Below are positions 1,786 through 63,503 of a DNA stretch of 64,000 bases, piece by piece. Made by a program: the position numbers and the translations under genes. Numbering within the stretch: the stretch's first letter is position 1; every line of letters begins with the position of its first letter. The notes under the pieces are model-generated. The model was not told the DNA's origin. It saw only the letters and a program-made list of their open reading frames with translations, and searched no databases. Source of the stretch: Thermoplasmatales archaeon (lineage in GTDB: Archaea > Thermoplasmatota > Thermoplasmata > Thermoplasmatales > GCA-001856825); assembly GCA_026127935.1 (NCBI GenBank), contig JAJSLL010000001.1, forward strand, positions 64,040 to 128,039, written 5' to 3'.

Positions 1786-1799
1786 GTTTGTTAAGGAGT

Positions 1800-5376: not shown

Positions 5377-5470
5377 TGTTTTCTGGATTTGTAACCGTAT
5401 ATTAATTCTTGTTCACTATGCTCCCGAAAAAGTCCAGTCAAATTTTCAGAATTTGAGATATAAGGCCAGA

Positions 5471-7090: not shown

Positions 7091-7238
7091 GGTTTCCCCC
7101 TTATAAAAGGACCGTAGAAATGCTTTTCTTCAGGGAAATAAAATCTGTATTCCATGAAATATGGTGGTTGAAGAGGGAGAAAGCAAACGACAGAAACGGT
7201 TAGCAGAACATTTTATAATATCAAGACTTTCAGATTCG

Positions 7239-8473: not shown

Positions 8474-8522
8474 TAATCATTATCGGACCGAGTTTAAAAA
8501 TTTGTTGTCGAGGGACCGGGTT

Positions 8523-10511: not shown

Positions 10512-10512
10512 C

Positions 10513-10830
10513 TCAATCGTTATTCTCCATCACAATGTTTGCAATTTTTTCGACGATTTCCCCTGAAATTTCCTTCCTGAGTTTGCCTGCCTGTTCTTCG
10601 AACCTCTTCTTGATCTGCAGTATCTCAAGGGAAGCCGCCTCCAACTCTTTCCGAACGTGATCGTCGTACGCCCTCTTCGAAATCGCTTCCGTCTCTGCTA
10701 TGATTCTCTTTGCCTCTTCGGCTGCGTTCTTGACTATCTCTTCCCCTCTGGATCTTGCTTTCTCGATCCTCTTTTGCGATTCAATCTCCCTCTCTCTAAT
10801 TGCCTTTAAGGTATCCATTTCATTTGTCAC
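10513..10830 (-). CDS. atpH: A-type ATPase subunit H (peripheral stalk)
   Basis: 105 aa, a highly charged all-helical sequence (..EREIESQKRIEKARSRGEEIVKNAAEEAKRII..). Its position directly upstream of atpI fits. The start is GTG at 10830, or ATG four codons later. Confidence 0.7.
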   Translation of the reverse strand: MTNEMDTLKAIREREIESQKRIEKARSRGEEIVKNAAEEAKRIIAETEAISKRAYDDHVRKELEAASLEILQIKKRFEEQAGKLRKEISGEIVEKIANIVMENND

Positions 10831-10925
10831 GATAAAACCTCCACTATGATAATCAAGGCCAGCATGAACATGAGCACGTTCGCAATCAGGATCAGTCTGG
10901 TCACGAGGAAGAATTTTCTTTGCAT
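10827..10925 (-). CDS. Unannotated 32-aa hydrophobic micro-ORF between atpD and atpH
   Basis: My own translation: MQRKFFLVTRLILIANVLMFMLALIIIVEVLS*. The ATG at 10925 lies 13 nt after the atpD stop. Its TGA overlaps the atpH GTG start as GTGA. It has one predicted TM helix and is too short for the ORF track. Confidence 0.3.
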   Translation of the reverse strand: MQRKFFLVTRLILIANVLMFMLALIIIVEVLS

Positions 10926-10938
10926 GGGATTTGCGAAC

Positions 10939-11610
10939 TTATACGCTCTCCTCACCCCTCTCCCCAATCTTGGCCTTTATGACCTTGAGCGTGATGAATG
11001 TCTCCCTGTCAATTTCATCAAGTTTCATCTTGATGTAGCTGGCCGTTTCAGTCAGCCTAGGGATCAGCACATTCTCTATCGAGTTAGTTCTTCTCTTTGT
11101 CTTATCTATCTCTATGAGTAGCCTCCTCATTGCGACCTCCTTTTCAGCAATCACCAGCAGCCTGTTCAGAAGTTCTACAAAGTTTTCCCTCGTCTCCATC
11201 AACGCGGTCGGAAGTGAAATAAGCTCGTAGAGTTGGTCCATGAAACTGTTCTGTTTGGCCATAGATACTTGTGGGATCTTCACCCCCATCACGTTTTTGG
11301 ATGTGACATCGACCTTCAGTCCAGGCTGGAAAAAGGCCGTGTTTTCTATGATGAGTTTTCCCGATACTATTTCGGCCAGTCTCTCGCTTGCAATTGATTT
11401 CTGTATCAGTTCCGTTACGTTCCCCTTGAGCCCCTTCACTTCCCTGGAAATGGAGAAGAATTCCAGTATGAGCGAAGATCTCTTCAGTTTGAGTAGGTCA
11501 AGCCCTCTCTTGGCCAATTTGATTCTTCCCTTTGTCTTCAGGAGCTCCATTCTGGTGGGGCGAATGTTGGATGTTTCCAAATCACTTCCCCCATTTTCCA
11601 TACCTGTCAA
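10939..11610 (-). CDS. atpD: A-type ATPase subunit D (central stalk)
   Basis: 223 aa with ..[29 protein letters not shown].., typical of V/A-type D subunits. Confidence 0.9.
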
Positions 11611-12964
11611 TGAATTCTCTTTTCACTCTCTTCATTTCCCTTTCTGGTAGCGTAGAAAGGGCATCCCATCCGATATCCAATGTTTTCTCTATCGTTCTAT
11701 CTTCGTTGAATCCCTGGTTAACGAACTTGTCTTCGAATAGATTTGCAAAATCTAGGTATTGCCTGTCTTCCTTACCGAGCGCCTCAGTCCCAACTATGGC
11801 GCTCAGGCTTTTGAGGTCTGTTCCCCTACCGTAAGCAGAGTACAGCTGGTCGGCAACGCCTCTGTGATCTTCTCTCGTTCGCCCTTTCCCTATGCCCTGA
11901 TTCATGAGCCTGGATAGCGAAGGAAGAACGTTGATTGGGGGATAGATGCCTTTCCTGTGCAACTCCCTGCTCACGAAAATCTGTCCTTCCGTAATGTATC
12001 CTGTCAGATCTGGGATTGGATGAGTCATATCATCGGATGGCATGGAAAGAATCGGAAGCTGTGTGATTGAACCATTTTTTCCTCTGATCTTTCCTGCCCT
12101 TTCGTAGATCGTTGAGAGATCGGTGTACATGTATCCAGGATAGCCTCTTCTCCCCGGAACTTCTTCCCTTGCGGCTGATATTTCGCGTAGCGCTTCTGCA
12201 TAATTTGTAAGGTCTGTCAGGATAACGAGGACGTGCATCTCCCTCTCGTAAGCCAGATATTCAGCCGCAGTGAGTGCGACCCTTGGAAGGATAATCCTTT
12301 CCATGGATGGGCTAGATGCTAGGTTGAGGAAAAGAACTGACCTCATCAGGGCCCCTGTTTTCCGAAACTCATCTATGAAGAAGTTAGCCTCTTCAGATGT
12401 GATCCCCATCGCTCCAAATATGATAGAGAAACCTTCCGAAGAGCTCAGCACTTTGGCCTGTCTCGCAATCTGTGCGGCGAGTTTATTGTGAGGAAGTCCA
12501 GATCCTGAGAAAATTGGCAACTTCTGTCCCCTGACCAGGGTATTCATCCCATCGATTGTTGAAATTCCCGTTTCTATGAACTCAGACGGCTCTTCCCTTG
12601 AGTAGGGATTGATTGCGTTCCCCACAATCTCTATCTTTTCGTTCGAAACTATTGGGCTCATTCCGTCAAGTGGCTCTCCCAACCCGTTGAACACTCTCCC
12701 AATCATTTCATCAGAAACCGCAATCCTTGCGATGTCTCCCCTGAAACGCACCGTGGTATTCGCCGTGTCCAGTCCTGTGGTTGCCCCGAAAATCTGTACG
12801 ATAGCAGTACCTTTCATCGTGTCCAAAACCTGTCCCTGTCGCACCTCTCCGTTTCCGAGCGTGATCTCAACCATTTCGTTGTATCCAATATTGTCCACCT
12901 TCTCCACGAAGAGCAGAGGTCCCGCAATTTTTGAAACTGTCTTGTATCTTATATCAGCATTCAT
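11582..12964 (-). CDS. atpB: A-type ATPase subunit B
   Basis: 460 aa with strong family-wide conservation (..[15 protein letters not shown].., ..[14 protein letters not shown]..). It overlaps the atpA stop by 4 nt. Confidence 0.95.
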
Positions 12965-15900
12965 TGCTTATCAGCCCTTCCCTTGATTTCAGACTCCATC
13001 TCTTTGATAAGAGCACCGTAGTAACTGTCAATCTCACTTTCCTTCACTTCCTTGAATCTCGAGAGCTTCTCTTTGAATGGGAGCGAATCCAATTCTGAGA
13101 CTGTCATCCCCTTTGTCACTGCATATTTCTCCATTTCGTCCATGGCAAGGATGGATTTGAGCATCAGGTATTGCTTCTTCAAAGAGCAGTATGTATCTAC
13201 CTCGTCATATGCACTCTGCTGGAGGAAGTCTTCCCTGAGAGACTTTGCAATATCTAGTACCTCCTTTTCGTTCTCTGGAAGGGCATCGTACCCAACCAGT
13301 TGTGCGACTTCTTGCAGTTCCGCCTCTTTTTCCAGAATGGTCATGCTCTTTTGATATGCAGAGTACCAATCGTCTGAAACGTTCTTGTTGAACCATTTGC
13401 TTAATTCTTGGGAATACAGCGAATAACTGTTTAACCAGTTTATCGAAGGAAAATGTCTTCGCTGCGCCAGTGATGCGTCGAGAGCCCAGAAGACTCTGGT
13501 GACTCTCAAAGTGTTTTGGGAAACCGGTTCCGAAGTGTCCCCTCCGGGAGGCGATACCGCCCCGATTACGGTAATAGATCCCCTTCTTTGATCGCTCGAT
13601 ACGACTCTGGCATTGCCTGCTCTTTCGTAGAATTCCGCGATCCTTCTTCCGAGATATGCGGGGTAACCTTCTTCTCCGGGCATTTCTTCAAGTCTCCCCG
13701 AAATTTCTCTAAGGGCCTCTGCCCACCTAGAAGTACTGTCAGCCATCAGTCCCACATCATAGCCCATATCCCTGAAGTACTCTGCAAGGGTAATACCGGT
13801 ATATATGCTGGCCTCTCTTGCCGCCACAGGCATATTTGAAGTGTTTGCTATCAGGGTCGTCCTCTCCATCAGGGGCTTCCCTGTCTTTGGGTCTGTCAAT
13901 CGAGGAAATTCTGTCAACACTTCCGTGGCTTCGTTTCCTCTCTCTCCACATGCGGTATATATTATAACATCTGCATCGGACCATTTCGCAAGCTGTTGTT
14001 GAACTACGGTGTTATGTAGTATGATTCCTCCATACCCACCAACAAAATTTTGTCCATCATCTGGAACCGATACATCATACACCCATACTGGCCCATTCTC
14101 CCTTTCAATACTTAAAATCTCATCGCCGTAGACGAACTCGGATGAGGCAGTTATTGAATTATCAACCTCTGGGAATTCAGGATTAGCTTCTTCCACTATC
14201 TGCATGAAATTTGTAAATTTATTCATGCTCATGTGTTCATTGTTCCCTATGTAGTCATAAATCCCTATTCCGTTCTTAAGCAGCTTTGAATAAGTAGTGT
14301 TCCTGTAGATTTCCGCTATGTATTCTTTTGAAACTGGGGCAATATCGATTGAATCAAAGCCGCGTCTCTTTGAATTGATGTATTTTGCAATCGATGAAAT
14401 CTTTGTGAGATTCTTGGAGAAAATAGATGAAAACTCCTTCAGATCGACAATGTTCCTTACAAATATCCTATAGTACGTTTTTTCCCCAATCGTTCTGGTT
14501 CCTAAGGTATGAATCACTCCAAGTCTAGTCAGGAGATAGGACAACTGGTTTCTTAGTTGAAAGCTCGCAGTCGAAAGTCCGACTTCCCCGTTGCTGAATG
14601 ATCCATTCCCAATAAAATAGGCTTCGAGGAATGCATTCAGAATTCCCTGGCTAGATTTCAACAAAATGTTTGGAATTTGTTTGGTTGACGCTGTCCTGCC
14701 TACTTCAAGTGAGTCCAAGAATTTTACCAGTACGGAATTGTGTACCAAGATGTTTGGAGTCTTATCTGCCTGTAGTTCTAGCTTGGAATGCAGTCCAAAG
14801 ACAAGGGATGTAAGTTCTGAGAACCTGTCTAGCAGGTACTTTTCGGAATTCGTAAAGACCACAGTTTCGTCTCCTCTGATGTAACCTTCAGAGACATAAT
14901 AGCCGATGAATTCGGCCAGTTCTTTAGTGACTTTGGATGGGATAGTTACAGTAGAGCTTCGTTTATCTCCGATCAGAACTCTAGGTAGGGGAGCAGTCAA
15001 CCCCATAGTCTCATAAATGATCTTTAGCCACTTCAGTTTTGGAGCAACGGATTTTGTAGCTCTTGTCAAACTGTACCGTACATTCTTCGGGAGTTCAATT
15101 CTGATATTTTCTGATGAAGCTCTTTTCAACAATTCCGATACGTTCTTTCTGATATCCTCATCCAGGACTCGAACTTCGGGTAGACTGTACAAATCGATCT
15201 CTGAGTCTTGGTTATTGATGGCAATTTTTTTGGCCGATAAGATATAGTTTCCAGGAGATAGGTTTTTGGCCATAGTCTCCTCTATTTTCCCTCTTTCGTT
15301 AACTTTGAATAACTTATGAACAGGAGTTATTCTGACTTCCCTTCCAGTTCGAGTTCTGATCTTAAAGACACTCTCACTCTTGCCTCTGAATATTAATCTA
15401 GATCTGCTTTTGACAATATTGTTTCCTTTGTACGAAAACAGGTCTATCGGTTGAACAAGTTCAAGGTATTCTCCATCCTTATCTATGATCTTGTTCGATG
15501 TTTTTTCGTACTTCTCATAGAGGTCTTCTATCTTTATTAGGGTTCCATCGCCCAAGAGCACCGGCGTATCTCCTGTCACGCACTTTCCTGACCCGAAAGG
15601 TCCAGGGACCGCTACAGTTCCTCCCTTTGCGACGGGGAAGAACGAGTCTATAACCCTTTGCCCCGTAACCAGCGGAGTCTCTGGAGGGAGTTTGCTCTTG
15701 ACGGGTCTCGGTAGACGCACTGGCCATTCCTGACCCAACGGAATTTCTTTGATTCCGGACTTTGACAAAACAGTGCCTACTGTTTGTAGTGGAGTGAACT
15801 CTCCCTCTTCAATCGTTTCAATCGTTCCTTCGATACCATGGGGTACCATTATTCTGTGGTCTATCAGCGAAGTTTCCTTCACTATACCAACTATATCTCC

Positions 15901-16287
15901 CGCAGATACCTTGTCTCCCTTCTTGACGGTTGGATTGAATTTCCATTTTTTCTTCATATCCACTGGTGGCGGGTAGAGTCCCCTTTTGATGAAATCCCCT
16001 CCCTGAGCCCTTATAACATCGAGGGGCCTCTGAACTCCATCATAGATCGATGAGAGCAATCCCGGCGCCAGGACGACCGACAGGGGCTTTCCCGTCGACT
16101 CAACATTCTCTCCGGGTTTGATACCGCTCGTATCTTCGTAGACCTGGATGGTCGCCTTATCTGCCTCCATGCCGATGATCTCTCCAAGGAGTCCCAGTTC
16201 TCCGACTCTGACGACATCGTACATCTTTGCATTCTCAATATCTTCCGCAATAACGACTGGTCCAGCAATTCTCAATATCTTTCCCAT
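12961..16287 (-). CDS. atpA: A-type ATPase catalytic subunit A, interrupted by an intein (1108-aa precursor, 584-aa mature)
   Basis: The N-extein ends ..[10 protein letters not shown] and the C-extein starts [27 protein letters not shown].. Joining them restores the Walker A motif GPFGSGKT. Confidence 0.95.
14011..15582 (-). mobile_element. AtpA (VMA-type) intein, 524 aa, with a LAGLIDADG homing-endonuclease domain
   Basis: It starts at Cys ([10 protein letters not shown]). Block B is TPVH and the C-terminal blocks are [15 protein letters not shown], followed by +1 Thr. Two LAGLIDADG-like motifs are [13 protein letters not shown] and [15 protein letters not shown]. Coordinates were checked codon by codon (tgc at 15582..15580, aac at 14013..14011). 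Confidence 0.9.
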
Positions 16288-16623
16288 TTACATTCCTCCT
16301 AGGTCCATGTTTATACCCAATACCCTTCTTGCGAGGTTTGAAATACCTTCTTCCTCAGCTCCCTCTGTCACAGGTATGAAAACGACAAGAGGTGAAACGC
16401 TGCTGTAGAGCAGGCTCGTGAATTTCTTATCCAGGGTCCCAGCAAAGCTGTTTGACGAAAGGATCAACCCGAAGTTTCCAGAATGGTAAAGCTCCCTGAG
16501 CTTGTCTGAATAGGAATCTTTATCGACTATGAATGTGTCCTCGACGCCCACCAGCTTGAAGCCGACGGCCAGTTCCCTTTCCCCTATAAAAGCAATTCTT
16601 CCAAACCGCTCATTCTTTACCAT
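16288..16623 (-). CDS. atpF: A-type ATPase subunit F
   Basis: 111 aa (..RIAFIGERELAVGFKLVGVEDTFIV..), located between atpC and atpA. Confidence 0.85.
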   Translation of the reverse strand: MVKNERFGRIAFIGERELAVGFKLVGVEDTFIVDKDSYSDKLRELYHSGNFGLILSSNSFAGTLDKKFTSLLYSSVSPLVVFIPVTEGAEEEGISNLARRVLGINMDLGGM

Positions 16624-16627
16624 TTTT

Positions 16628-17689
16628 TCACCCCAGATTGATTGTTGTCATTTTAATTGTTTCATCGTCTATGTCATAGTATCTGCTGAATGCCAAATTT
16701 CTGATATCTTTCCACTCGGCCTCCGCTCTCAACAGGAATGCGATTATGTTGTTCAATGAGAGGGCACTCATTTCCATGATGTTAACGAACTCCCAGTAGA
16801 GGTTCCTGTTTAGCTCACCCTCGATGCCAACGAGCGAACCCTTTCTCTTGTAGAAATCGAATCCCTTGGAAAAGTCAGAATACCCTTTGATCTTTTGGCT
16901 GAGCTCCTCTACGTCGGTGCTCTTGGCAAGATCATCCACCAGTTGGCTCGACAGACCGCCTCCCGTCAAAAGGTAGTTTGAGACGTTGTGGTTCGCCCTG
17001 AACTCGATGAACTTCAGGATTGTCATTATGTTCTTTACATCTATTGTCCTCTTTATGAATCTGAATATAGGTCCTTCACTCCCCGAATAAAATCGGAACC
17101 TCTCCTTCATCAAGTCGAAATAGTAGAGGTCGAGCGAAAGGAGCAGGGTTGCAATGTTGTTCGTTTTCCTGTACTCGTCCAGATAAGCGAGGAGCGCCTT
17201 TCCATATCCAAATTTGAGTGTGTAGGAGATGATGTCCTCCACGTTGTCCATTGCGATGAGGTTGTGGTAGTCGTTCCTGTCCAGGAGCCCTGCAAAGACT
17301 CCCAGCTGGGTGTTGGCCTCCGATACCAGATAAAGAGCGTTCTCCTCGATCTTTAGATTGAGGTTCTTGGAAACTAGAATCGTCTTGATGTTCTGTATGT
17401 CCCACTTGGTGAGGAACGAAACTATCAGGTCCTTACCGTTCTGTGGGGTGACAGCAAGAGCACGTCTGTTCATCTTTGCAAGATGAAGGTTGTTGGCTGA
17501 TTCTAGGAGGTCCAGTCCCTTGTAATCTGAGGACTCGGAAATGTCTTCACTGTAGCCGTGTCCGTTGACATAGGAAACAAAATCTTCTGGGTTGGAGAGT
17601 CTGTACATTTCTTCGTAGTCCTTCCTCTGGAGAAACTGCGTCTTGGTAACTTTCAGGGTACCATAAGGAAGACCGAAAGAATTCTGCAA
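16628..17689 (-). CDS. atpC: A-type ATPase subunit C
   Basis: 353 aa. Size and operon position between atpE and atpF fit the family. Confidence 0.8.
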   Translation of the reverse strand: MQNSFGLPYGTLKVTKTQFLQRKDYEEMYRLSNPEDFVSYVNGHGYSEDISESSDYKGLDLLESANNLHLAKMNRRALAVTPQNGKDLIVSFLTKWDIQNIKTILVSKNLNLKIEENALYLVSEANTQLGVFAGLLDRNDYHNLIAMDNVEDIISYTLKFGYGKALLAYLDEYRKTNNIATLLLSLDLYYFDLMKERFRFYSGSEGPIFRFIKRTIDVKNIMTILKFIEFRANHNVSNYLLTGGGLSSQLVDDLAKSTDVEELSQKIKGYSDFSKGFDFYKRKGSLVGIEGELNRNLYWEFVNIMEMSALSLNNIIAFLLRAEAEWKDIRNLAFSRYYDIDDETIKMTTINLG

Positions 17690-17693
17690 AAGA

Positions 17694-18263
17694 TCACCCG
17701 TTGATATGGTCCCTTACAACCTTTCTTATCTTATCGCTCTTGTTCCTCACGATCTCTGAAAAAGTCAGATCTATGATCATCTTCCCATCTGCAGAAGTGA
17801 CTATGACTCCTCCGAGTGGACCGATCTTGTCTGAGGTCTTGCTCGAGTCGATCCCCTTTTGCTTCATCCTCGTGGAATCATCCCTGCTAAGGTATACTAC
17901 GGCGTCCTGGCCGAGTATTTTTTTAGAGTTGCCAATCGCCTTCTTCAGGAATTCCAGGTACTCGTCTGTCTTCAATAAATCTACCAACTTAGATCGAAGG
18001 GCTTCCTGATAATTATTCTCGATCTTTTCCCTTTCCTGTTCTAGGAAAGACCTACCCTCAAGAGTTGCCGAAGAAGTCCTCTGTCTCTTTTCAGTTTCGG
18101 CGTCTTCCCTTGCCTTCTCATCATAGCTGGCCCTTATTGCAGACGCCTTGTTCTTCGCATCTTCAATTATTTTCTTTGCTTCCTCTTCACTCTTACTGAT
18201 GAGAGCTTGCTCTTCCTTTTCCGTGTCTTTCTGTATTCTGTCGAGAATTTCTTCTAACGGCAT
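17694..18263 (-). CDS. atpE: A-type ATPase subunit E (peripheral stalk)
   Basis: 189 aa with a charged helical N-terminus (..EEQALISKSEEEAKKIIEDAKNKA..) and a globular C-terminus. Its operon position fits. Confidence 0.8.
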   Translation of the reverse strand: MPLEEILDRIQKDTEKEEQALISKSEEEAKKIIEDAKNKASAIRASYDEKAREDAETEKRQRTSSATLEGRSFLEQEREKIENNYQEALRSKLVDLLKTDEYLEFLKKAIGNSKKILGQDAVVYLSRDDSTRMKQKGIDSSKTSDKIGPLGGVIVTSADGKMIIDLTFSEIVRNKSDKIRKVVRDHING

Positions 18264-18267
18264 AAGC

Positions 18268-18498
18268 TCACAGAATATGCAGGAGTAGGATCAGTCCGAG
18301 CACAAATCCGATTATCCATAATGTCTCCGGTATAACGAAGAAGAACAGAACCTGCCCGAATTTTTCCGGCTTTTCTGCTATTACTCCCATACCCGAAGCA
18401 CCAATTCCGCTTTGTGCCATTCCTGTACCTATAAGTCCACCAGCCATGGCGATCGAGGCGGCGATGGCAAATAGCGCATCAGTAGTCGTAACCACCAT
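18268..18498 (-). CDS. atpK: A-type ATPase proteolipid subunit K (c-subunit, single hairpin)
   Basis: 76 aa with two TM helices and a Gly-rich first helix (GLIGTGMAQSGIGASGMGV). The ion-binding carboxylate lies in FFFVIPETLWIIG. It is the first gene of the operon, with a TATA-like acttttatt about 30 nt upstream. Confidence 0.85.
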   Translation of the reverse strand: MVVTTTDALFAIAASIAMAGGLIGTGMAQSGIGASGMGVIAEKPEKFGQVLFFFVIPETLWIIGFVLGLILLLHIL

Positions 18499-18631
18499 TA
18501 ATATCAGGAGTGCATGTATGAGAGAATAAAAGTATTTTGCAGTCTTTTGGAGCGCTGAAAAATATCAGTGCTAGAAAAGTTCTCTTGAAACAGGATAAGT
18601 TGATATATCTCAAAAAATTTTCTTTCCTATC

Positions 18632-18702
18632 GCGAGTGTAGTGTAGCGGTAGCACAAAAGCTTCCCAAGCTTTTAACCCGGGTTCGAATCCCGGCACTCG
18701 CA
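18632..18702 (+). tRNA. tRNA-Gly (anticodon CCC), 71 nt, no encoded CCA
   Basis: Hand-folded. Acceptor GCGAGTG/CACTCGC, D stem GTGT/GCAC, anticodon stem AAAGC/GCTTT with loop TTCCCAA, and T arm CCGGG-TTCGAAT-CCCGG. Confidence 0.85.
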
Positions 18703-18824
18703 TAACAATCCCTCTGAACATACCTTTTCAAAGGTTAGGAAAATATTGGGCCACATCTTGCTATTCCCATCAACAGTTTCAATGTGAAGCCAATTTGTTG
18801 TTCATTTATTAATATAAAGACGCA

Positions 18825-20078
18825 ATGTCCATTTTCGTGTTCAGTGAATCGCAGGAAAAGGTTGATTCATCGTTCAAATTTCTACTAGTTTCCAGATCAG
18901 CAAGAAGCATATCTCTCATGTTCGTCACGCTAGCTTTCTCCCTCTACCTCTACAATCTAGGATATGGTCTTGTATTCATCGGTTTGATCTTTCTTCCGAT
19001 AATTCTGTTCAACATGATTTTCTCCCTGTTTCTAGGTATACTCGGAGACAGGTACGGTTATGTGAAGGCTCTCGTTATCGGTGAGTTACTTCCACTTCTG
19101 GGCCTCGCAGGACTGACTATATCCTCGAACATAGATGTCATCGCCATTTCTGCAGTGATCACTGGCATAACAGGAACTGCCGGTGGAATGAGAGGAGCCT
19201 TCTCACCAGGAACGACCGCTTTTGTCGCAAGCAATTGGCCTGATGAAGCTGACCGAGTGAGAAGGATTGCAAAGATGTCTGTGGTCGCTTCCCTTTCATC
19301 CATAGTGGGAAGCTCCCTACTTGTAGTGCACGGATATCTCAATCCGTACTTCGGGATAACCGGTAGCTTTCGTTTCCTGTTTGGAATCTCTTCTTTCATA
19401 CTCCTCATTTCGTTCGTTTCACTCCTTTTCTTGAAGGAGGTAAAGAGACCGAAGAAAACGAGCAGGATCATGAAGGGTGAGAGCTTCTCATACCTCCTCA
19501 GAGTGCTGTTCCCCAACGTAATAAACGGAGCAGCGATAGGTATTTTCTCCCCGCTGCTGACACTCTGGTTCGAACTAAGGTTCCATGTCTCAATCTCTTA
19601 CATTGGAGAAATCTTCACACTAGCATACGCAGCGACTGCGTTCGGTTCATTCGTCGCTGGAAGATATCTAAACTCAGAAAGGGTGAGGGCAATAACAGTC
19701 TCATCAGTGACTCGACTATTTCAGGGACTCTTGTTGATTGGGATGGCCCTTTCTCCAATTGTTCCAATAGCCTTCTCTCTATATGCGATCAGAAGCGCAG
19801 TTGCAGGCATGGGAATGCCCATGAGAACCGCAATAAACGTCCGGGGAATCGGGAATGAGGACTACGGTACTGCATCCAGTCTTCAGGGAATAGCAACTAG
19901 GGGTTCGCAAACAACATCCGGCATTTCTGGTTATCTGATGGACACATACATCGCATCTCCATTGCTGGTCGGAGGAGCCCTTCAGATCGTTGGATCCGTA
20001 ATTTACTACCGAGCGATTCGAAAATGGGAAAAGAAGTCAGAAATATCTAACGAAAATCATAGTTTGAATAAGAGTTGA
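18825..20078 (+). CDS. Major facilitator superfamily transporter
   Basis: 417 aa with about 12 hydrophobic segments and an MFS-like loop motif GILGDRYGY after TM2. Confidence 0.7.
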   Translation: MSIFVFSESQEKVDSSFKFLLVSRSARSISLMFVTLAFSLYLYNLGYGLVFIGLIFLPIILFNMIFSLFLGILGDRYGYVKALVIGELLPLLGLAGLTISSNIDVIAISAVITGITGTAGGMRGAFSPGTTAFVASNWPDEADRVRRIAKMSVVASLSSIVGSSLLVVHGYLNPYFGITGSFRFLFGISSFILLISFVSLLFLKEVKRPKKTSRIMKGESFSYLLRVLFPNVINGAAIGIFSPLLTLWFELRFHVSISYIGEIFTLAYAATAFGSFVAGRYLNSERVRAITVSSVTRLFQGLLLIGMALSPIVPIAFSLYAIRSAVAGMGMPMRTAINVRGIGNEDYGTASSLQGIATRGSQTTSGISGYLMDTYIASPLLVGGALQIVGSVIYYRAIRKWEKKSEISNENHSLNKS

Positions 20079-56127: not shown

Positions 56128-56778
56128 TTACAGGAATAATGCCGATATCATTACCCTCAACCTCTGCAACCACCATGGTATCAAAAGCATCATGAAGTCA
56201 AGATCCTGCCTGCTGAACGTTTTCAGGACCTTTATTATACGGGAATAAATGGCAAATGCCAGCAGGATATAGGCAAAGAGCTTCAGCGGAGAATAGAGGA
56301 ATAATTTCTGAAGTCCAAAGATAACAAAAAACATGACGAAGTCTGCAATGTAGGTCTTAGCTATCTCAATCCCCCTCAAATTTCAGTATGTCAAACTTCT
56401 TTGCGTAATAATACATCACAAAGGAAGATACAACCGATATAGATGCGTATCCTATTGAGGCACCTATCATCTGGTTTTGGTATGAGGAGAATCGAGAGAA
56501 TGAAATTCGAGAGAAGAGCGACGGAAGATGAAATAAGAAAAATCTTTGTCTTCCTTATCCCCTGCAAAGAGACTGAGAGTATATTGCCTGAGACGAAAAT
56601 GGAACTGGCTCCGAGAACTATGATGACCTGCACCGACGCAGGAAGGTAAACGCTGCTTGCGAGGAACAGCAGGATAGATGAGGAGAGTGCGGCTACAAGC
56701 ATCGCCATGGGCACATATATAGTGCTTATGAGTTCTATACCCTTCGCCACGTAATTCTTCATTTCCTTCTTTCCTCAT
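56128..56778 (-). pseudogene. C-terminal ~40% of a Wzx-type flippase paralogue, frameshifted
   Basis: ORF-track pieces 56391..56762 and 56128..56379 align to residues ~295-507 of the intact flippase. Examples are KGIELISTIYVPMAMLVAALSSSILLFLASSVYLP versus KAIELLLAFYVPVSLVVAAISPSILLFLANPSYLP, and YSPLKLFAYILLAFAIY versus YSPLKMVAYILLGFVIY. Confidence 0.7.
56757..56769 (+). repeat. Left copy of the direct repeat flanking the flippase cassette (CTTCATTTCCTTC)
   Basis: It matches 58788..58802 (CTTCATTTGCCCTTC) apart from a 2-nt indel. Both copies lie exactly at the break points of the decayed paralogue. Confidence 0.6.
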
Positions 56779-57263
56779 GGTCTATATATCTTTTATATCT
56801 TGAGGAGGAGAATTGTGGCTAATGGTCAGATGATGAAGATGATATCAGAGTTTATTAGTAAGGCGAAGTCGTAAAGTCAAGTAGGGAGAAGTTAGGAGAT
56901 ATGAACTTTGAATCTGTCGTCATAGCTTGCCCGATGGCCGATGAAAGACTAAAGCAAAATGGGGAATGCGCATTTCCATAATGAGCTTATCTTGATCCTT
57001 TCTCTCACGTTTCCACAGATGCATCTGGCTCTTTAGATGTTCTTGGCCTAATCGGGTATCTTCCTTGCACTCCTGTGAGCACGGGGGCAACGAAAATGGG
57101 CATTACCCGGTATATGGAAGCCATATTGTCTATCATCACCTTCCTATTCATAGAATTCCAATAAAATGATTCTTGGATAAAATGCAGCAATAGATCGCCT
57201 TATGAATTGAAGCACTTTGTAAGGAAAGGAACAGTAAAATAGGTGTTGAAGTTATGGCAGTGA

Positions 57264-58787
57264 ATGGAAGTTCTGGAATCAGGGGACGAAATAGGGAAGA
57301 GCATCATATATCAGTATGTCTCCGCAATTGTTGGCGTCCTCTCAGGTTTCCTCTTCTATATATATATTGTCAGAGTGTTCACCACAGAGGTTGTTGGTGT
57401 CGTTGCTCTTCTTTCAGCAATGATTATCCTTTTTTCAACTGTTTTCGGCGTCGGCCTGAACTTCGGCGTACAGCATTTCATCTCATACTACATAGGGAAG
57501 AATGACCCTGAATCATTGAAGTCCGTGGTTAAGGAGATCTCTCTCGTCCTGATACTTGTGTCCATACTGGCAATAGTCTTCATGTGGTTTTCTTCTCCTG
57601 CATTCGCATACCTGTTCTTTCACACATACCGCTACCTCTATATCATAAGAATCATGGGATTTGCAGTAGTTGCAAACCTGGGTTCAAGCGTCATGGGAGG
57701 AATGGTCCTCGGACTCCAGAAATTCAGGGTGAATGGACTCATCAGCATTGCGTATACAGTGGTTATGTATTCAGCCATAGTGATTATGCTGCAGTTCAGT
57801 GTCAGCCCGCTGGTGGTGGTCGTAGGATGGACTGCAGGCTATTCCCTGGCTGCCTTGTTATTTTCCATTCAAGTGATAAGACGGATAGGGGGGATGAAAT
57901 CAAGCGCAAAAGCTGTGTCTGTGAGAACAATCATAGATTACTCTCTCCCCCTCTTCATATCATCCCTTCTGGGATACGGTGCGACGTACGTGGATAGGTT
58001 CGTGGTATCGTTCTTCCTGAACCTTTCAGAGATGGGCATATACAACTTCTCTCTGCTGATTGTCTCGGCACTTGGGATACTCATAGGCCCCTTCAGCACA
58101 ATCCTCTTTCCCAAGCTCTCCGAGCTGTACGGCAGAGGGGATATTGAAAATCTCCGTCTGTACAGCTCAAAGGCCATAGAACTCCTTCTTGCGTTCTACG
58201 TCCCGGTCTCTCTCGTAGTTGCAGCCATCTCCCCATCGATACTCCTTTTCCTCGCAAATCCATCATACCTTCCGGGATTTATACCAATAACGGTGATAAC
58301 AATAATCAACGCACTTTTCATATCGTCCAACATTCTGACAGTTTCGCTGCAGGCCGTCAGGAAGACGAGGATATTTCTCCTATCATCATCCCTTGCGCTC
58401 ATCTCCAATTTCATCATTTCCATACTTCTCATCCCGAGGTTCGGGATAAACGGAGCAGCTGTAGGTTTCTCGTCCATTTACATCATGAGCTTTGCGGTTA
58501 CATACTACTATTCAAGGAAATATGGAACGGCATACTTTGAGAAGCGGAAGATCGCCAAGATAATGCTCTCAGGGGCAGTAATGTTCTCAGTTGTTTTTGC
58601 ACTGCAGATGTACTACTGGTATTCTCCTTTGAAGATGGTAGCATACATACTTCTTGGCTTTGTGATCTACGTACTGCTCATCAGGCTGCTGGGCACATTC
58701 AGCGGCGAGGACGTGGAAATGTTCATGAAACTTCTTCCCAGGACTATGAACATCAAGTCAATACTGAGGAAGCTTGTTGTGAAGTGA
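57264..58787 (+). CDS. Wzx-like oligosaccharide flippase (MOP superfamily polysaccharide biosynthesis protein)
   Basis: 507 aa with at least 12 TM segments and the typical family layout. It lies next to glycosyltransferase and nucleotide-sugar genes. Confidence 0.75.
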   Translation: MEVLESGDEIGKSIIYQYVSAIVGVLSGFLFYIYIVRVFTTEVVGVVALLSAMIILFSTVFGVGLNFGVQHFISYYIGKNDPESLKSVVKEISLVLILVSILAIVFMWFSSPAFAYLFFHTYRYLYIIRIMGFAVVANLGSSVMGGMVLGLQKFRVNGLISIAYTVVMYSAIVIMLQFSVSPLVVVVGWTAGYSLAALLFSIQVIRRIGGMKSSAKAVSVRTIIDYSLPLFISSLLGYGATYVDRFVVSFFLNLSEMGIYNFSLLIVSALGILIGPFSTILFPKLSELYGRGDIENLRLYSSKAIELLLAFYVPVSLVVAAISPSILLFLANPSYLPGFIPITVITIINALFISSNILTVSLQAVRKTRIFLLSSSLALISNFIISILLIPRFGINGAAVGFSSIYIMSFAVTYYYSRKYGTAYFEKRKIAKIMLSGAVMFSVVFALQMYYWYSPLKMVAYILLGFVIYVLLIRLLGTFSGEDVEMFMKLLPRTMNIKSILRKLVVK

Positions 58788-58802
58788 CTTCATTTGCCCT
58801 TC
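58788..58802 (+). repeat. Right copy of the direct repeat flanking the flippase cassette (CTTCATTTGCCCTTC)
   Basis: It starts at the nucleotide after the flippase stop codon (58785..58787). See 56757..56769. Confidence 0.6.
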
Positions 58803-59205
58803 GGGTGAAAACAGAACGTATCTTCAAGGGATGAAGGCCATCATATTTTACTATAATGTTCAAGCTGCAGGGGGTGCATATTAGATGCGATCGATCTGTC
58901 AATGCAGCCTGCACAGTCACCTATGGGTGATGCAATGAATACAGGGAGTGCATAACTCAATATTTTGCTCGTTCTGTTTCCATCCAAGCATCTCTTTGGA
59001 CACCTGGCCCTCCGGAGTATGAGCGCAAGTATGCTACAGGGGAAAAGACTTAACCCGTTATCCATCCTATGAAGATGAAAAGGCTGTTATTGAAGAGTGC
59101 TAGCAGCACTATGGGGAGGGAATAGGTGATCAATATGCACACAACATTCTACACAGCCTGCGATTTGAAACTCTGGAGACCGATCAGTATCCCGCTAAGT
59201 AAGTT
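58797..59205 (-). pseudogene. Middle part (residues ~140-290 equivalent) of the same decayed Wzx paralogue
   Basis: My own translation gives NLLSGILIGLQSFKSQAV*NVVCILITYSLPIVLL..GWITG versus intact SVMGGMVLGLQKFRVNGLISIAYTVVMYSAIVIML..GWTAG. ORF 58841..59065 gives SKILSYALPVFIASPIGDCAGCIDRSI versus RTIIDYSLPLFISSLLGYGATYVDRFV. Confidence 0.6.
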
Positions 59206-59247
59206 TCACGTAAAGGTACGATACGAGTTCTTCCTGTGGAGTCCCGT

Positions 59248-59350
59248 CCAGGACCGCTCGATAGAGTCAGCTTAGATCAGCTATTACAATCTTGTTCAGG
59301 TTTTCAATCCGCTTCCGAACAATGTCTACCACCAGTTAACCCGAATGCGC
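59248..59350 (-). pseudogene. Relic copy of the rmlC 3' end plus its downstream ~40 nt
   Basis: Minus-strand taatagctgatctaagctga...agcggtcctgg (59286..59248) matches taatagctgatttgagctga...agcaggtacctgg (62961..62925). The first 20 nt match at 18/20. Similarity to the last rmlC codons further upstream is weaker. Confidence 0.5.
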
Positions 59351-59355
59351 CACCT

Positions 59356-59556
59356 TTAATCTGACGGCTTTCTCTCAGAGCGTATTATTGTGACCCTGAT
59401 TACTTCGGGATTAATAGACTCCATCTGCCATTCCAGCTGGTCTCCTGAATTGAGCTTCATCTGCCTCACTATTGACCCGGGAACCGTTGTCCTTAGAGAG
59501 TCTGTTTTAATTCCAGCAGAAACAAGTTTAGTTCTATCTCCCCTATTTCTTGCCAT
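59356..59556 (-). CDS. AbrB/SpoVT-like small DNA-binding protein
   Basis: 66 aa with the swapped-hairpin signature ..LRTTVPGSIVRQMKLNSGDQLEWQ.. Its stop abuts the rmlC relic. Confidence 0.5.
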   Translation of the reverse strand: MARNRGDRTKLVSAGIKTDSLRTTVPGSIVRQMKLNSGDQLEWQMESINPEVIRVTIIRSERKPSD

Positions 59557-59675
59557 TCTACTTGGACAATGGCCTTAACTCTATAAGTCTTTCTGTAGGG
59601 ATAACTAAAGGATAATAAATAGGTCTAAGAATAGATATATTTATAATCTAGATAGCAATACCTTACTGATGAAAT

Positions 59676-59933
59676 ATGGAAGAAAATACAGACAAACAGA
59701 AGGAATGGTTGGATGAACAGTATGTAGAAATGGCCTTAGAAAGATATGAGAAGATCAAATCAATTGTTTCAAAAGGGAATAGACCAACCCGTTATGAAAG
59801 GGAACTTATCTCACTGATATTCAATAAATTGGTTGACCCGTACTACTATTGGGTAGAGGCTAGGGTAAAGGGCGAAAATGAAAATGCCAGCAATAAAAGT
59901 GCAAAGGAATCAAACGTTGAAGACATTTACTAA
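59676..59933 (+). CDS. Hypothetical small acidic protein
   Basis: 85-aa ORF divergent from the AbrB-like gene, across an AT-rich promoter-like spacer (..atatatttataatc..). No recognisable motif. Confidence 0.35.
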   Translation: MEENTDKQKEWLDEQYVEMALERYEKIKSIVSKGNRPTRYERELISLIFNKLVDPYYYWVEARVKGENENASNKSAKESNVEDIY

Positions 59934-60093
59934 ACTAGCGGCTAAATACGACCTTGATATATCTGAGATTAGTGGCACCCCAAGCAGGATAAAGATGAAG
60001 ATATACATCGATAAAGGGTTTGAAGAACTGAATGCTAGGATGAAGAGCATAGGCTATTCGTATGAGAGAGGGAGCAGATCATTCGTTAAATAG
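59878..60093 (+). CDS. Hypothetical small basic protein
   Basis: 71-aa ORF overlapping the previous ORF by 56 nt in another frame. No recognisable motif. Confidence 0.3.
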   Translation: MKMPAIKVQRNQTLKTFTKLAAKYDLDISEISGTPSRIKMKIYIDKGFEELNARMKSIGYSYERGSRSFVK

Positions 60094-60230
60094 CAATACT
60101 TTATTCAGAGAGAAGGGCTATCCTGCTTCTCCCCTAAAGCAAATCATATTATGAAAGAGCCTCGAGGGGGCAGTAAATAAGAACACCAATTGAAGGATTT
60201 TTACAGACTTCCATCGGATACCCTTTCTCC

Positions 60231-60302
60231 ATTCAATCCACGTTCAAACAATGTTCAAACTTGGTTCAAAATGTGTTCAAATGGCCATTCAAACTTTCAA
60301 AC
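60231..60302 (+). repeat. Iteron-like array of seven copies of (G/A/T)TTCAA(A/T)(C/A/T)
   Basis: Copy starts are 60231, 60242, 60253, 60264, 60275 (exact 11-bp spacing), then 60287 and 60295. The units read ATTCAATC, GTTCAAAC, GTTCAAAC, GTTCAAAA, GTTCAAAT, ATTCAAAC, TTTCAAAC. Inverted TGAAC half-sites follow at about 60328, 60358, 60367 and 60464. Confidence 0.7.
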
Positions 60303-60740
60303 TGCATGGGATTTCATACCCCTTATGTGAACTCATAACAATTAGATATGAGAAAGATGAACGTACATGAACCATGAAGAAAGTGAAAGAATCTATATGG
60401 AGTAATAAGGGAGCATTAAGACCAATCCTGTCCCTGAAATTTTGAAACATTTATAACTGCCATATGAACTGACACCCCCTAAAATCGGTGCTTGGTGGAG
60501 GTGACAAGTTATCCGATGTCAGCCTTCAGAAGGAACGTGAATAATTTGCTGGTGATCTCAACAGACAGATGCGCAGCCATCGGCTAGAATTTCTGGAAAA
60601 GAGTGGTATGTAAATGTTTGGAAATTAATATTCCAATAGTAATATATTTATTTCTGACTCGCATGTTTTCCTGATTGAATGGGTAAGAAGATGGTAGGAA
60701 AAATCACAGGAACGGATAGGAAGTGTGGAGCAATAGAGGA

Positions 60741-60771
60741 TATCAGCGCATGCTTGATCTTCCCGCTGATA
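60741..60771. promoter_or_regulatory. Perfect 8-bp inverted repeat TATCAGCG-N15-CGCTGATA upstream of the HTH/coiled-coil gene (operator candidate)
   Basis: The arms are at 60741..60748 and 60764..60771, 39 nt upstream of the ATG at 60810. The right arm overlaps an AT-rich gataaacaa box. Confidence 0.35.
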
Positions 60772-60809
60772 AACAATACCGAGAAAAGCTGTGTGAAGGA
60801 GGGTGAAAT

Positions 60810-62837
60810 ATGGCAAGGCAGCTGAGCATTGAGGAGAAAAGGAGCATAATTCTGCTCTACCTGGACGGCTTCTCTCAGCATGCAATAGCAAAGAAAACTC
60901 GTAGGTCCATAGGGATTGTCAATGCTGTCATAAGTGACTGGGAAACCGGGAAAGGAATAGAACCGGAGAGCGGTCTCCTTTCTGGAGAGATAAGGGAGAT
61001 TGCAAGGTTCATGAAGGAAAAGAATCTTTCCATATCCGAACTGGATGAGATGTTCCTTACTGACACAGTTTTAAAGGAATCAGGTCTCAACAAACCTTCC
61101 ATATTGAAGATAATGAGAGGGTTCAAGGGAATCGGTGATGAAGAGCTGGAGAAATATGCTGAGACTGTTATGAGAATCAGGAGGGTGGAGGATGAGACTC
61201 ATATATCCATAGATAAGCTCCACGATGTTGTTACAGAGGAGGAAGAAAGCCTTTCCAAAATCAGGAAGGAGAAGGCAGAGCTTGAAAGGGAAATTCAGGA
61301 AATGAAATCTGACTTAACATCCCTCAGCAAGCAGTACAATGATGAAAAAGAGGACATCGAGTTTTCAAAGAACGTCAGAAACATAACTGGGGCACACAGT
61401 AACAACGACGTTCTCTCAATTCTGGCAGGATTGAAGAATGCGGCATTTGATGCTCCTACTTATCTGAGACTCAAGGAGCTGCTGGAGAGGGTGGAAAATA
61501 TTGGTATCAGCATTGACAATTTCGTTTCAGCTGCAAATGACGTCCTTGCTTTGAGAGATATGGGTTTTTCCCTGGACTACCTGGAGAAGCTCAGGGCAGA
61601 GCTGGCCGGATCGAAATTGGATTTCAGGAGGATTGTCGACCAGTTCATGGATTATCAGAGAAATATGCAGAAATTCGATCTGGAGACAAGGGAGAAAGAG
61701 AAAAATATAGGAAAGTTAAAAGAGGAGTTGGAAGAGAAAGGCTCAGCGCTTGCCAAGCTCAGGGGGGAAGAGAATGTTCTCAGGAATAGCATTTCTTCCC
61801 TTCAATCGAAGAAGAAAGTGCTGGAGGCGAAAATCTCTGAGCTGACAACGCAGATTGAAACACAGCGAAGAGAATATGACAGACTGGTTGAAATGAACAA
61901 TGGCCTGAAGATTGAGGCGGAGGCGACGGAAACCGTTCTAAGGACATACAAGGAAGGGTTCAAAAACTATAACGACCTGAATATGGGAATAGGTCTATTG
62001 AATAAAAGATACTCCGATCTCAAGAAGGAATACGAGAAAAGGAAAGAAGAAGTGGACCTTGGGCTCGCCCTGTTCGGCCTTCTAACTGAGTCTCCAGGAT
62101 ACGATCTGGAGGGATTAAAGCTGATGTGCAGTAACTTGTTAGAATCTCCTGCCGTCGGAGACCGTGATTTGCATAAGATAAAACTGAAGGCCATTGAATT
62201 GCTGATTAAAATGACGCAAAACAATCTCGTGGCCTTAAGTTCCACAGACGGCGACATGTTGAAAATCAAGTTTGTCAGCAAGGAGGAGTACTATGAAAAT
62301 ATGCAGAAATTCCTGGAAATCGAAAGGATGAAGCAGGAGATCGAGAGTATCCAAGAGATGGTGAAGAAAGAAGCTTACAAGTTCGTGAAGGCCGAGCTAG
62401 AATCAAGGGGAGAAGACCCTGCAATAAGACCATATATCAGGGAGGTAGTCAAGGAGGTAATTAGAGAAAGATGTGAAGCAGAAGCGCAGAGAATTTCAGA
62501 TGAGGAACTAATGAAATCTGGTACTAAGGTTCTTTTAAGCTTACCTGGATTCGGAGAGGGGACTGGAACAAAAGAGGGACGAGTAGGGGAATTTATTAGA
62601 TTAGTTTACTTAGACGATTCTGGAAAAACCGGAGAGGACGCAATATCCCTAGAGAAAGTTCTCAAGTCTCTGTTGGAGGGAAAGGAGGTAGAAGGTTCAT
62701 ACTATTACTATGACAGCTGTGAGGCTCTTAAGGCGATAATTTTTTATTATGCAAAGGGAAAGACCCCGCCTATCAAGCTACTAAGGAAAAAAGGAGAAAT
62801 TCGAATATTCAAGGGGAGCATAGTCCATCCTCCTTGA
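60810..62837 (+). CDS. 675-aa protein with an N-terminal HTH, a long central coiled coil and an uncharacterised C-terminal domain
   Basis: The N-terminus LSIEEKRSIILLYLDGFSQHAIAKKTRRSIGIVNAVISDW resembles transposase/resolvase-type HTH domains. Residues ~130-560 are Glu/Lys/Leu-rich heptad-like sequence. No NTPase or recombinase motif was recognised. Confidence 0.55.
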   Translation: MARQLSIEEKRSIILLYLDGFSQHAIAKKTRRSIGIVNAVISDWETGKGIEPESGLLSGEIREIARFMKEKNLSISELDEMFLTDTVLKESGLNKPSILKIMRGFKGIGDEELEKYAETVMRIRRVEDETHISIDKLHDVVTEEEESLSKIRKEKAELEREIQEMKSDLTSLSKQYNDEKEDIEFSKNVRNITGAHSNNDVLSILAGLKNAAFDAPTYLRLKELLERVENIGISIDNFVSAANDVLALRDMGFSLDYLEKLRAELAGSKLDFRRIVDQFMDYQRNMQKFDLETREKEKNIGKLKEELEEKGSALAKLRGEENVLRNSISSLQSKKKVLEAKISELTTQIETQRREYDRLVEMNNGLKIEAEATETVLRTYKEGFKNYNDLNMGIGLLNKRYSDLKKEYEKRKEEVDLGLALFGLLTESPGYDLEGLKLMCSNLLESPAVGDRDLHKIKLKAIELLIKMTQNNLVALSSTDGDMLKIKFVSKEEYYENMQKFLEIERMKQEIESIQEMVKKEAYKFVKAELESRGEDPAIRPYIREVVKEVIRERCEAEAQRISDEELMKSGTKVLLSLPGFGEGTGTKEGRVGEFIRLVYLDDSGKTGEDAISLEKVLKSLLEGKEVEGSYYYYDSCEALKAIIFYYAKGKTPPIKLLRKKGEIRIFKGSIVHPP

Positions 62838-62951
62838 TAACAAACCCAACTCACAAAGGGCATATCAGTAGCCTAGAATCAGCATTTCTCCAATTCCACG
62901 TACCAATCATTTTGATACATATTGCCAGGTACCTGCTCTATTCAGCTCAAA

Positions 62952-63503
62952 TCAGCTATTAGATTGCAAGGCACTACCACTTAATAAAGGCCAATTATTG
63001 TCCTTATCCGAAAGTATTGGTTCCGAAATAGGCCAGTGGATATTTACCAAGGGATCATCCCATCTTATCCCACCTTCCAACGTTGGATCGAACTCATTGG
63101 TACATCGATTAAGAACGATTGACTCTTCAGAAAGGCTCAGAAAACCATGAGCAAAACCAGGAGGAATCCATATGCTCTCATTTGATTCTGCAGAAAGAGT
63201 CTTTGAAACGTATCTCAAGTAAGTAGGAGACAATGGTCTTATGTCTACCGCAACATCAAATATTTGACCTTTGATTATGGATATGAGCTTACCTTGGGCT
63301 TTTGGTTCCCTCTGAAAATGAAGTCCCCTTAGAACATTTTTCTTGGAGTTAGAGATGTACTCTTCTTTGAAGGGATCACTTACTACGTTTGCAAATGGAG
63401 TTATTTCGTACTCCTTCATCAAGGCCCCTCTTGTGTCCGAGAAATACTTCTTCTTAATAAACACTACGCCGCTAATTCTGGCTGGTGTGAACTCAAAGCT
63501 CAT
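62952..63503 (-). CDS. rmlC: dTDP-4-dehydrorhamnose 3,5-epimerase
   Basis: 183 aa with ..LRGLHFQREP..GQIFDVAVDIR..IPPGFAHGF.. Confidence 0.9.
   Translation of the reverse strand: MSFEFTPARISGVVFIKKKYFSDTRGALMKEYEITPFANVVSDPFKEEYISNSKKNVLRGLHFQREPKAQGKLISIIKGQIFDVAVDIRPLSPTYLRYVSKTLSAESNESIWIPPGFAHGFLSLSEESIVLNRCTNEFDPTLEGGIRWDDPLVNIHWPISEPILSDKDNNWPLLSGSALQSNS

Follow-up and report, generated by a model that had tools for sequence, protein, structure and literature searches.

An intact flippase gene inside the decayed remains of another type: probable scar of a flippase replacement in a surface-glycosylation island of an I-plasma-like archaeon

The flippase block

The window analyzed here is a stretch of 64,000 nucleotides from a Thermoplasmatales archaeon (assembly GCA_026127935.1, contig JAJSLL010000001.1, positions 64,040 to 128,039). 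Between positions 56128 and 59211, it carries an intact plus-strand gene for a Wzx-like flippase, flanked on both sides by minus-strand pseudogene fragments, here called A (left) and B (right), of a second kind of flippase, referred to below as the resident type (Table 1). Our reading is that one flippase has replaced another here, in a variable island of surface-glycosylation genes of an I-plasma-like acid-mine archaeon, that the block is the scar of this replacement, and that it has moved between species; we put the probability of this reading at about 0.78. An earlier note on the same DNA had described a flippase cassette inserted at a short direct repeat into a single, otherwise continuous paralogue. 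As described below, the gene, its flanking fragments, and the repeat motifs are present, but the fragments do not meet at the repeat and are not consecutive.

Table 1. Features of the block and divergence among its copies. Identity is the mean pairwise nucleotide identity; K is the mean pairwise Jukes–Cantor (JC) distance.
Feature	Position	Strand	Identity	K	Remarks
Fragment A, outer part	56128..56762	-	0.65	0.48	residues ~296-507 of a resident-type Wzx-like flippase; frameshifts near 56474 and 56371; divergence deeper than in the core
Left repeat copy	56757..56769	+			CTTCATTTCCTTC (GAAGGAAATGAAG on the minus strand); inside A, ~residues 294-298
Fragment A, inner part	56763..57035	-	0.80	0.22	residues ~207-295; in frame and contiguous with the outer part; six in-frame stops
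Spacer	57036..57139	.	0.81	0.28	no detectable flippase homology; possibly very decayed A (residues ~175-206)
5' flank travelling with the gene	57140..57263	+			shared with L070/L071, whose DNA further left is unrelated
Intact flippase gene	57264..58787	+	0.906		507 amino acids; MOP superfamily, Wzx/Polysacc_synt type
Right repeat copy	58788..58802				CTTCATTTGCCCTTC; inside the 66-bp 3' flank of the intact gene
3' flank travelling with the gene	58788..58853	+			T-rich end (ATTTTA); 89.5% shared with L070/L071
Fragment B	58854..59211	-			residues ~140-262 of a resident-type flippase; frameshift near 59024, several stops
Fragment B, inner part			0.81	0.23	
Fragment B, outer part			0.68	0.44	
Beyond the block			<0.55		

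The intact gene

The intact gene of the earlier description is confirmed. Its product matches the Pfam family PF01943 (Polysacc_synt) over residues 11–288 with 75.5 bits (cut-off 28.2) and also exceeds the Pfam cut-offs for PF03023 MurJ (42.3 vs 27.4) and PF01554 MatE (29.2 vs 24.9). A crude hydropathy scan gave 14 hydrophobic 19-mers with a Kyte–Doolittle (KD) value of at least 1.6, some of them overlapping, which corresponds to about 12–14 segments. Scores against the NCBIfam equivalogs WzxE, MurJ, SpoVB, and HfsF were far under every cut-off (WzxE, 21.5 vs 325; MurJ, 37.9 vs 235), and a PDB sequence search with the protein detected no relative of solved structure. Judged by these matches, the protein is a member of the superfamily that belongs to no named subfamily.

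Copies of the gene that are 90–94% identical occur in contigs of the genomes G012, G014, and G019 and in contigs from ENA. Among nine full-length copies, the ratio of nonsynonymous to synonymous divergence (dN/dS) is 0.14 at a synonymous divergence (dS) of 0.31, and the identities at the three codon positions are 0.937, 0.967, and 0.812, the last being the third position. These values argue for a working MOP/Wzx-type transporter under purifying selection. From its family, the protein should flip lipid-linked oligosaccharides for the glycosylation of surface proteins or of an S-layer, a substrate and role that are thus predicted. A described archaeal protein of the same broad Wzx/MOP kind is AglR of Haloferax volcanii, which is Wzx-like and has been linked to the flipping of a sugar carried on dolichol phosphate for N-glycosylation of the S-layer; like the gene studied here, aglR sits in a glycosylation gene cluster. 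The base composition of the flippase unit gave no sign of a foreign origin (GC fraction 0.448 vs 0.449 for the window).

Decayed remains of a second flippase type

To delimit the fragments, we used tblastn with the intact flippase protein as query against the window and, separately, with the flippases of three same-genus genomes (G008, G018, and G003) against the fragments. In addition, a profile hidden Markov model (HMM) built from full-length flippase proteins was searched against the fragments, both in the window and in a cross-strain consensus. With the intact protein as query, the matches on the left cover residues 218–392 (56996..56475, minus strand, 43% identity) and 429–492 (56367..56176, minus strand, 50%), and those on the right cover residues 142–249 (59205..58883, minus strand, 24–31%). 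The outer part of fragment A is split by open reading frame (ORF) callers into ORFs of 123 and 83 amino acids.

The earlier note had let the left fragment start at 56778. The homology of fragment A runs on from there, gapless and in the same frame, through six in-frame stops to 56996–57035 (residues 207–218), which is some 80–90 codons past the proposed junction; with the G003 protein as query, A begins at residue 207, at position 57032. Of the roughly 500 nucleotides that had been taken for upstream sequence of the intact gene's own, about 270 are therefore fragment A. An extension of A still further, into the stretch 57036..57263, was rejected, since HMM searches of this stretch in the window and in the consensus gave no match to the flippase profile; by eye, the spacer has a weak 'KILD.AR..GNV' likeness to 'KILEKLRSINGNV' of L012. 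On the right, the first ~139 codons of fragment B are gone in the window. They are kept in G012, L023, L025, L026, and L069, where B starts at residue 1, and in G012, it is in register from there to residue ~262.

When compared with the flippases of G008, G018, and G003, fragment A is 55–62% identical, and fragment B is 53–64% identical in its outer part and 33–35% in its inner part. These three flippases are in turn 45–47% identical to the intact flippase. The whole panel of homologues ranks alike against A and B, with G008 and G018 closest, which argues for the same origin of the two fragments. By this comparison, A and B are most readily taken as what decay has left of the flippase type that was at the site before.

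The proposal that the fragments are consecutive parts of one degraded Wzx-like gene thus holds in one respect and fails in another: both flank the intact gene and are nearest to the same resident type, but they overlap. The HMM matches positions 215–266 in fragment A (independent E value, i-E, 1.5e-07) and positions 139–201 (i-E 4e-19) and 193–251 (i-E 1.5e-07) in fragment B, and the conserved block SYxxPxFxxSxIGxxAxxxDR occurs once in each fragment. The fragments are thus not consecutive and overlap by at least 45–55 codons; with such an overlap, the event was no simple cut-and-paste insertion.

In the window, both fragments are pseudogenes: six stops and two frameshifts disrupt A, stops and a frameshift disrupt B, and the lesions are mostly specific to a strain. 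Those common to most strains are confined to sites close to the intact gene, namely, stops near residue 277 of A (7 of 10 strains), near residue 293 of A (five strains), and near residue 265 of B (11 of 13). The remaining stops and frameshifts are all strain-specific, and the cross-strain consensus of the outer part of A is an open frame of 212 codons. An alternative genetic code was ruled out as an explanation of the stops in A because TAA, TAG, and TGA are mixed and frameshifts occur as well; a functional truncated protein from either fragment was ruled out by the stops and frameshifts of its own that each strain carries. The fragment A of I-plasma is broken up in turn (L015:6312-7600; G012:C1 ~238311-239600), with about 1.3 kb lying between the pieces for residues 369–442 and 310–335.

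The resident type in relatives

The earlier note had proposed a search for the uninterrupted paralogue in relatives, and such genes exist. G018 has a full-length resident-type gene on the minus strand between the homologue of g52867 and the homologues of g59676 and g59878, so that both place and orientation match those of A and B in the window; G008 and G003 have an intact resident-type flippase within the same island. All three are genomes of the same genus. No tandem pair of resident-type flippases was seen among the 41 related genomes searched, and a metagenome scan with N-terminal patterns for a close intact allele of the resident gene found nothing.

Beside its intact resident flippase, G018 has an ORF of 439 amino acids (L028:11080-12399, minus strand) with N-terminal helix-turn-helix (HTH)-like and coiled-coil-type matches, which recalls a 675-amino acid HTH/coiled-coil gene at 60810-62837 of the window. 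A 637-amino acid neighbor in G018 was considered as a homologue of the 701-amino acid neighbor in the window and was dismissed for lack of similarity.

Exchange of the block between species

At least 20 contigs, drawn from several genomes and from metagenomes, show the order A, spacer, intact gene, and B, with decay that differs between strains, and this speaks against the recent event in this one genome that the earlier note implied. Carriers include G012 (“Thermoplasmatales archaeon I-plasma,” on a 550-kb syntenic contig), G014, about 11 low-coverage contigs of the bin G019 (YP3.bin60), and several ENA contigs. In G019, contigs C3, C30, C32, C43, C47, C59, C61, C64, C77, C83, and C85 hold at least 11 versions of the locus at 3–5x coverage and with differing flanks. 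A single genome with 11 copies was rejected, the 3–5x contigs having syntenic but very divergent flanks and the backbone of G019 not matching the window; at the island, the bin appears to be a composite of strains, and copy counts taken from it are not copy numbers.

Divergence between genomes was quantified with Nei–Gojobori estimates for G000 and G012. In ten backbone genes, the silent sites are saturated (proportion of synonymous differences, pS, 0.71–0.85; third-position identity 0.36–0.51). The dS value is 2.46 for g49076, 0.91 and 0.80 for g52867 and g53888, the two left neighbors of the block, and 0.38 for the flippase. The block is also the best-matching stretch of the 64-kb window against the syntenic G012 region, with 84% nucleotide identity overall, 89.5% in the gene, and 77–81% in the noncoding and pseudogene flanks of the gene, as against 69–73% elsewhere. 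For comparison, window positions 1..20000 are 68–74% identical to G012, G014, and G009 and 71–78% identical to G018. The block is far younger than the genome backbone. Since silent sites and dead flanks lie beyond the reach of selection on the protein, these values argue that the block was exchanged between species after their split. The graded dS values suggest that this happened in nested steps, the flippase core being the most recent. The gene next to the block that encodes the 701-amino acid protein adds to this picture: in L019, L020, L022, and L024, it is only 40–45% identical to that of the window while the flippase is 90% identical, which points to a mosaic history.

The segments of the block differ in age (Table 1). 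The inner flanks, with K values of 0.22–0.28, are about as diverged as the silent sites of the flippase (dS 0.31) and have therefore been linked to the gene since the common ancestor of its copies; the outer arms are older than the flippase core.

A gene-sized shared unit

The smallest shared unit is about 1.7 kb long (~57140..58853) and consists of the gene with some 120 bp in front of it and 66 bp behind it. It is defined by the ENA contigs L070 and L071, which carry a 90% identical flippase and have only 57144..58853 in common with the window. The DNA to the left of the unit in these contigs is unrelated, on the right 180 unrelated bases are followed by an element of the IS3 family, and no flippase remnants were found in either flank. 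A second context is provided by orthologues of 73–76% identity in JGI metagenomes, which are divergently oriented from the g53888 homologue at a distance of 457–503 bp and share only 57223..58790 with the window, with no remnants on either side; these loci are an unscarred context of the intact flippase type. Within the 5' flank, a TATA-like box (GTAAAATAG, ~57235..57243) is conserved 21–29 nucleotides before the ATG. Bases 57223..57263 are kept even in the 73–76% orthologues, and the mean pairwise identity over 57190..57263 is 0.86–0.94. A promoter function is predicted for this flank and a terminator function for the 3' flank.

The ends of the unit recur as independent junctions. On the left, these lie at 57137/8 in L017 and at ~57144 in L070/L071; on the right, L070 ends at 58853, fragment B is deleted from 58869 to 59312 in L018, L073, and L074, which places their junction at 58868, and the family homology of B stops at about residue 260–264, near 58853–58862. 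Clustering of this kind may mark a discrete cassette. A 374-bp deletion (56764..57137) with TCATC microhomology produced the junction in L017 and left a fragment A that begins at residue ~296; this deletion, and equally the 444-bp one that removed B from the three variants just named, is best regarded as a secondary loss in dead DNA.

The unit shows no hallmark of a transposon, integron, or integrative element. No recombinase gene was found in 56128..59211, nor any terminal repeats at the unit ends, and an Rfam search of the region returned no match, by which a structured RNA was dismissed. An element of the IS3 family stands beside the unit in L070/L071 only. This insertion sequence (IS; L070:2086-3472, also in L071) has HTH_Tnp_1 and rve/rve_3 ORFs and imperfect terminal inverted repeats of 51 nucleotides and lies about 250 bp downstream of an unscarred flippase unit. 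Behind it come an MFS fragment and another HTH_Tnp_1 ORF. Surroundings so rich in IS sequences could have mobilized the unit.

The direct repeat and rival explanations

The earlier note placed both break points at a direct repeat of 13/15 bp. Spelled out, its model would be that a ~2.0-kb cassette (56770..58787) had been inserted through microhomology or a site-specific mechanism, duplicating a target of 13–15 bp (CTTCATTT..CCTTC), and that its removal would restore an in-frame gene. Both motifs do exist as it described them, the gapped pattern they form is unique in the window, and the deletion in L017 has its left end on the left motif (56764). Neither copy, however, lies at a junction of insert and target. 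The left copy is inside the contiguous fragment A, which stays in register for ~90 codons beyond it, and the shared unit begins only ~370 bp further to the right; the right copy belongs to the gene's own 3' flank (58788..58853) and is present in L070/L071 despite the absence of fragment B there. About 20 other variants keep no more than CTTCAT(T/C) at either site, 24 direct-repeat families of comparable quality occur in the 3.8-kb region, and the search of the 1.58-Mb genome that the note had suggested yielded five further occurrences of the gapped pattern, all at unrelated places. The clean rejoining does not survive either: the “FHPK” codons are specific to the window, L022, and L026, they lie in the 3' flank that is shared by the B-less L070/L071, and the rejoined gene would be short of ~11–18 residues that fragment A supplies. 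The L017 junction is accounted for by its TCATC microhomology as a secondary deletion. The repeat is thus a purine-rich word, common in itself, that recurs here by chance; it is neither conserved in full in the other variants nor rarer than chance, and an insertion at this target is highly improbable.

The overlap of the fragments invites a different explanation. Insertion-duplication, or Campbell-type integration, is the single-crossover integration of a circle that carries an internal fragment of a gene. The target gene is left as two truncated, equally oriented copies, with the internal segment present on each side of the inserted DNA. Here, a circle with the flippase unit and an internal piece of the resident gene (~150–260 bp, residues ~175/207–262) would have recombined into the resident gene. 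The architecture is exactly as such an event predicts, with B (residues 1 to ~262), the insert, and A (residues ~207 to 507), both fragments on the minus strand and the internal segment on both sides in direct orientation. A promoter–gene–terminator unit is indeed found elsewhere without scars, and an old or foreign allele on the circle would account for the more decayed copy in B, in which case the two copies need never have matched. Yet no circular form, vector, recombinase, or plasmid backbone was seen, a crossover needs good homology that is no longer visible, and with only 47% identity between the shared copies, neither their origin in one duplication nor the duplication itself can be demonstrated. 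We regard this route as unlikely. The same low identity, and the lack of a special affinity of the B copy to any flippase type, would fit an origin of A and B from different resident-type genes, whether these stood in tandem as paralogues or occupied the site one after the other, with the new gene replacing the interval between them and the overlap being coincidental. Against this stand the identical ranking of homologues by A and the outer part of B (G008/G018 closest), the absence of a tandem pair from the 41 genomes, and the fact that B of G012 runs in one register, unbroken, over residues 1 to ~262, which together make two separate remnants quite improbable. As for an account without any transfer, in which the block was inherited vertically and stayed conserved because the flippase evolves slowly, the syntenic place of the block in G012 and the monophyly of the A fragments (see below) are what it would predict. 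Selection on the protein cannot, however, hold a flippase dS of 0.38 and pseudogene flanks at 77–81% identity beside ten saturated backbone genes, and the 701-amino acid neighbor is down to 40–45% in variants whose flippase is 90% identical; we give this account hardly any credence.

Probable replacement of the resident flippase

The reading that we prefer, a flippase replacement followed by movement of the block between species, keeps one element of the earlier proposal, the displacement of a resident flippase by a discrete, gene-sized unit (~57140..58853), and drops the break points claimed for it. A resident minus-strand flippase would have been displaced by an inverted, intact flippase of another type. 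The resulting block of A, new gene, and B would be older than this genome and would have moved among species of the genus by recombination at the locus, the core last. The first integration probably depended on homology with the resident gene. In keeping with the overlap, the target would have been duplicated over at least 150 bp, the two copies having decayed unequally.

Several observations weigh against this reading or limit it. The shared segments of A and B have consensus copies that are only 47% identical at the nucleotide level, which leaves the origin of the overlap unexplained and a recent duplication unsupported, and they differ in decay, the A copy being 68–71% and the B copy 44–54% identical to functional genes. 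In a tree, the A fragments all fall into one clade, to which the functional resident genes sampled are sister (support 94); this lends no support to repeated entry into different intact residents, the process by which the older outer arms would best be explained. The clustered junctions near 57140 and 58853–58868 may equally reflect selection that keeps a promoter and a terminator. Finally, the comparison contigs are mostly short pieces of metagenome bins, of which G019 is mixed, and the argument for exchange between species rests mainly on G012.

A further model is spread as a linear piece, with recombination between its dead arms and intact genes of the resident type. It would account for the peak of decay beside the gene and for the greater age of the outer arms. 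It is weakened by the single clade of A fragments, and repeated independent disruption of different resident alleles was set aside for that reason. A more far-reaching idea, which we hold as tentative and on the whole doubtful, is that the ~1.7-kb unit is a recombinase-less cassette that spreads between archaeal species, either with the halves of the displaced flippase serving as homology arms or by entry of a circle through an internal fragment that it carries. Junctions that recur within 7–15 bp at both ends, decay that is heaviest beside the cassette, and outer arms older than the core are compatible with it. If it were true, the resident flippase would be inactivated and its successor installed by one and the same recombination event.

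Comparison with bacterial surface-polysaccharide loci

For bacterial O-antigen loci, replacement of one flippase type by another, leftover pieces of genes, and recombination junctions at which no mobile element is present are well described (Kenyon et al., PMC5399914). The locus resembles the mosaic Wzx/Wzy-dependent O-antigen and capsule loci of Yersinia pseudotuberculosis, Escherichia coli, and Salmonella, in which modules are exchanged: the flippase type is swapped, scars of genes remain, there is no transposase or integrase, and recombination takes place between lineages. The differences lie in the organism, here an archaeal acidophile akin to I-plasma in which sequon-rich surface proteins are encoded near the locus, and in the form of the exchange. 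The new gene is inverted and lies inside overlapping halves of the gene it displaced, whereas the bacterial loci are exchanged between conserved housekeeping anchors, and the exchange is documented here by a dS gradient (saturated, 0.9, 0.8, 0.38). The piece exchanged most recently is a single gene-sized unit and not the whole island. The locus illustrates, clearly and with numbers, a sort of gene swap that is already known, in a new group of organisms, and it offers no new insertion mechanism.

Such flippases as a rule prefer their own glycan, and a swap can be seen as a step in changing the surface sugar coat, which is the first point of contact for viruses and for partners such as the small episymbiotic archaea of acid-mine biofilms. 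What has moved here is a surface-glycan gene together with its dead flanks, between species of an uncultured genus of acidophilic archaea whose silent sites are otherwise saturated, and about 20 natural variants are available for mapping the break points.

Neighborhood of the block

In Iplasma, a gene cluster related to the S-layer, including enzymes that attach sugars to dolichol, and genes for dTDP-rhamnose synthesis have been reported from the same region (Yelton et al. 2013, PMC3750248). Around the block in the window, the neighbors include rmlC and genes for sequon-rich surface proteins, and the genes on the right (59248..63040) have 70–86% amino acid identity to their counterparts in G009.

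The protein of 701 amino acids encoded on the left (53888-55993) is a polytopic membrane protein with an HPFDD motif near its N terminus and no match to a Pfam or NCBIfam family. It exists in deeply diverged forms (homologues in L019, L020, L022, L024, L049-L054, and L060), being 83–91% identical in G012, G014, and L017 and 40–50% identical in other variants with a 90% identical flippase; in L019, the gene is inverted relative to the window. On the right, an ORF of 66 amino acids (59356-59556, minus strand) has a weak match to PrlF-type antitoxins (NCBIfam E value 0.0048, far under the cut-off). It is kept at 62–86% amino acid identity beside the block in many variants, and in G009 it stands beside a different flippase type. 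Further to the left in the window, about 22 kb (27200-49000) are almost without counterpart in the syntenic region of G012, which is collinear on both sides of this flexible stretch; a gene for a sugar-binding protein lies within it.

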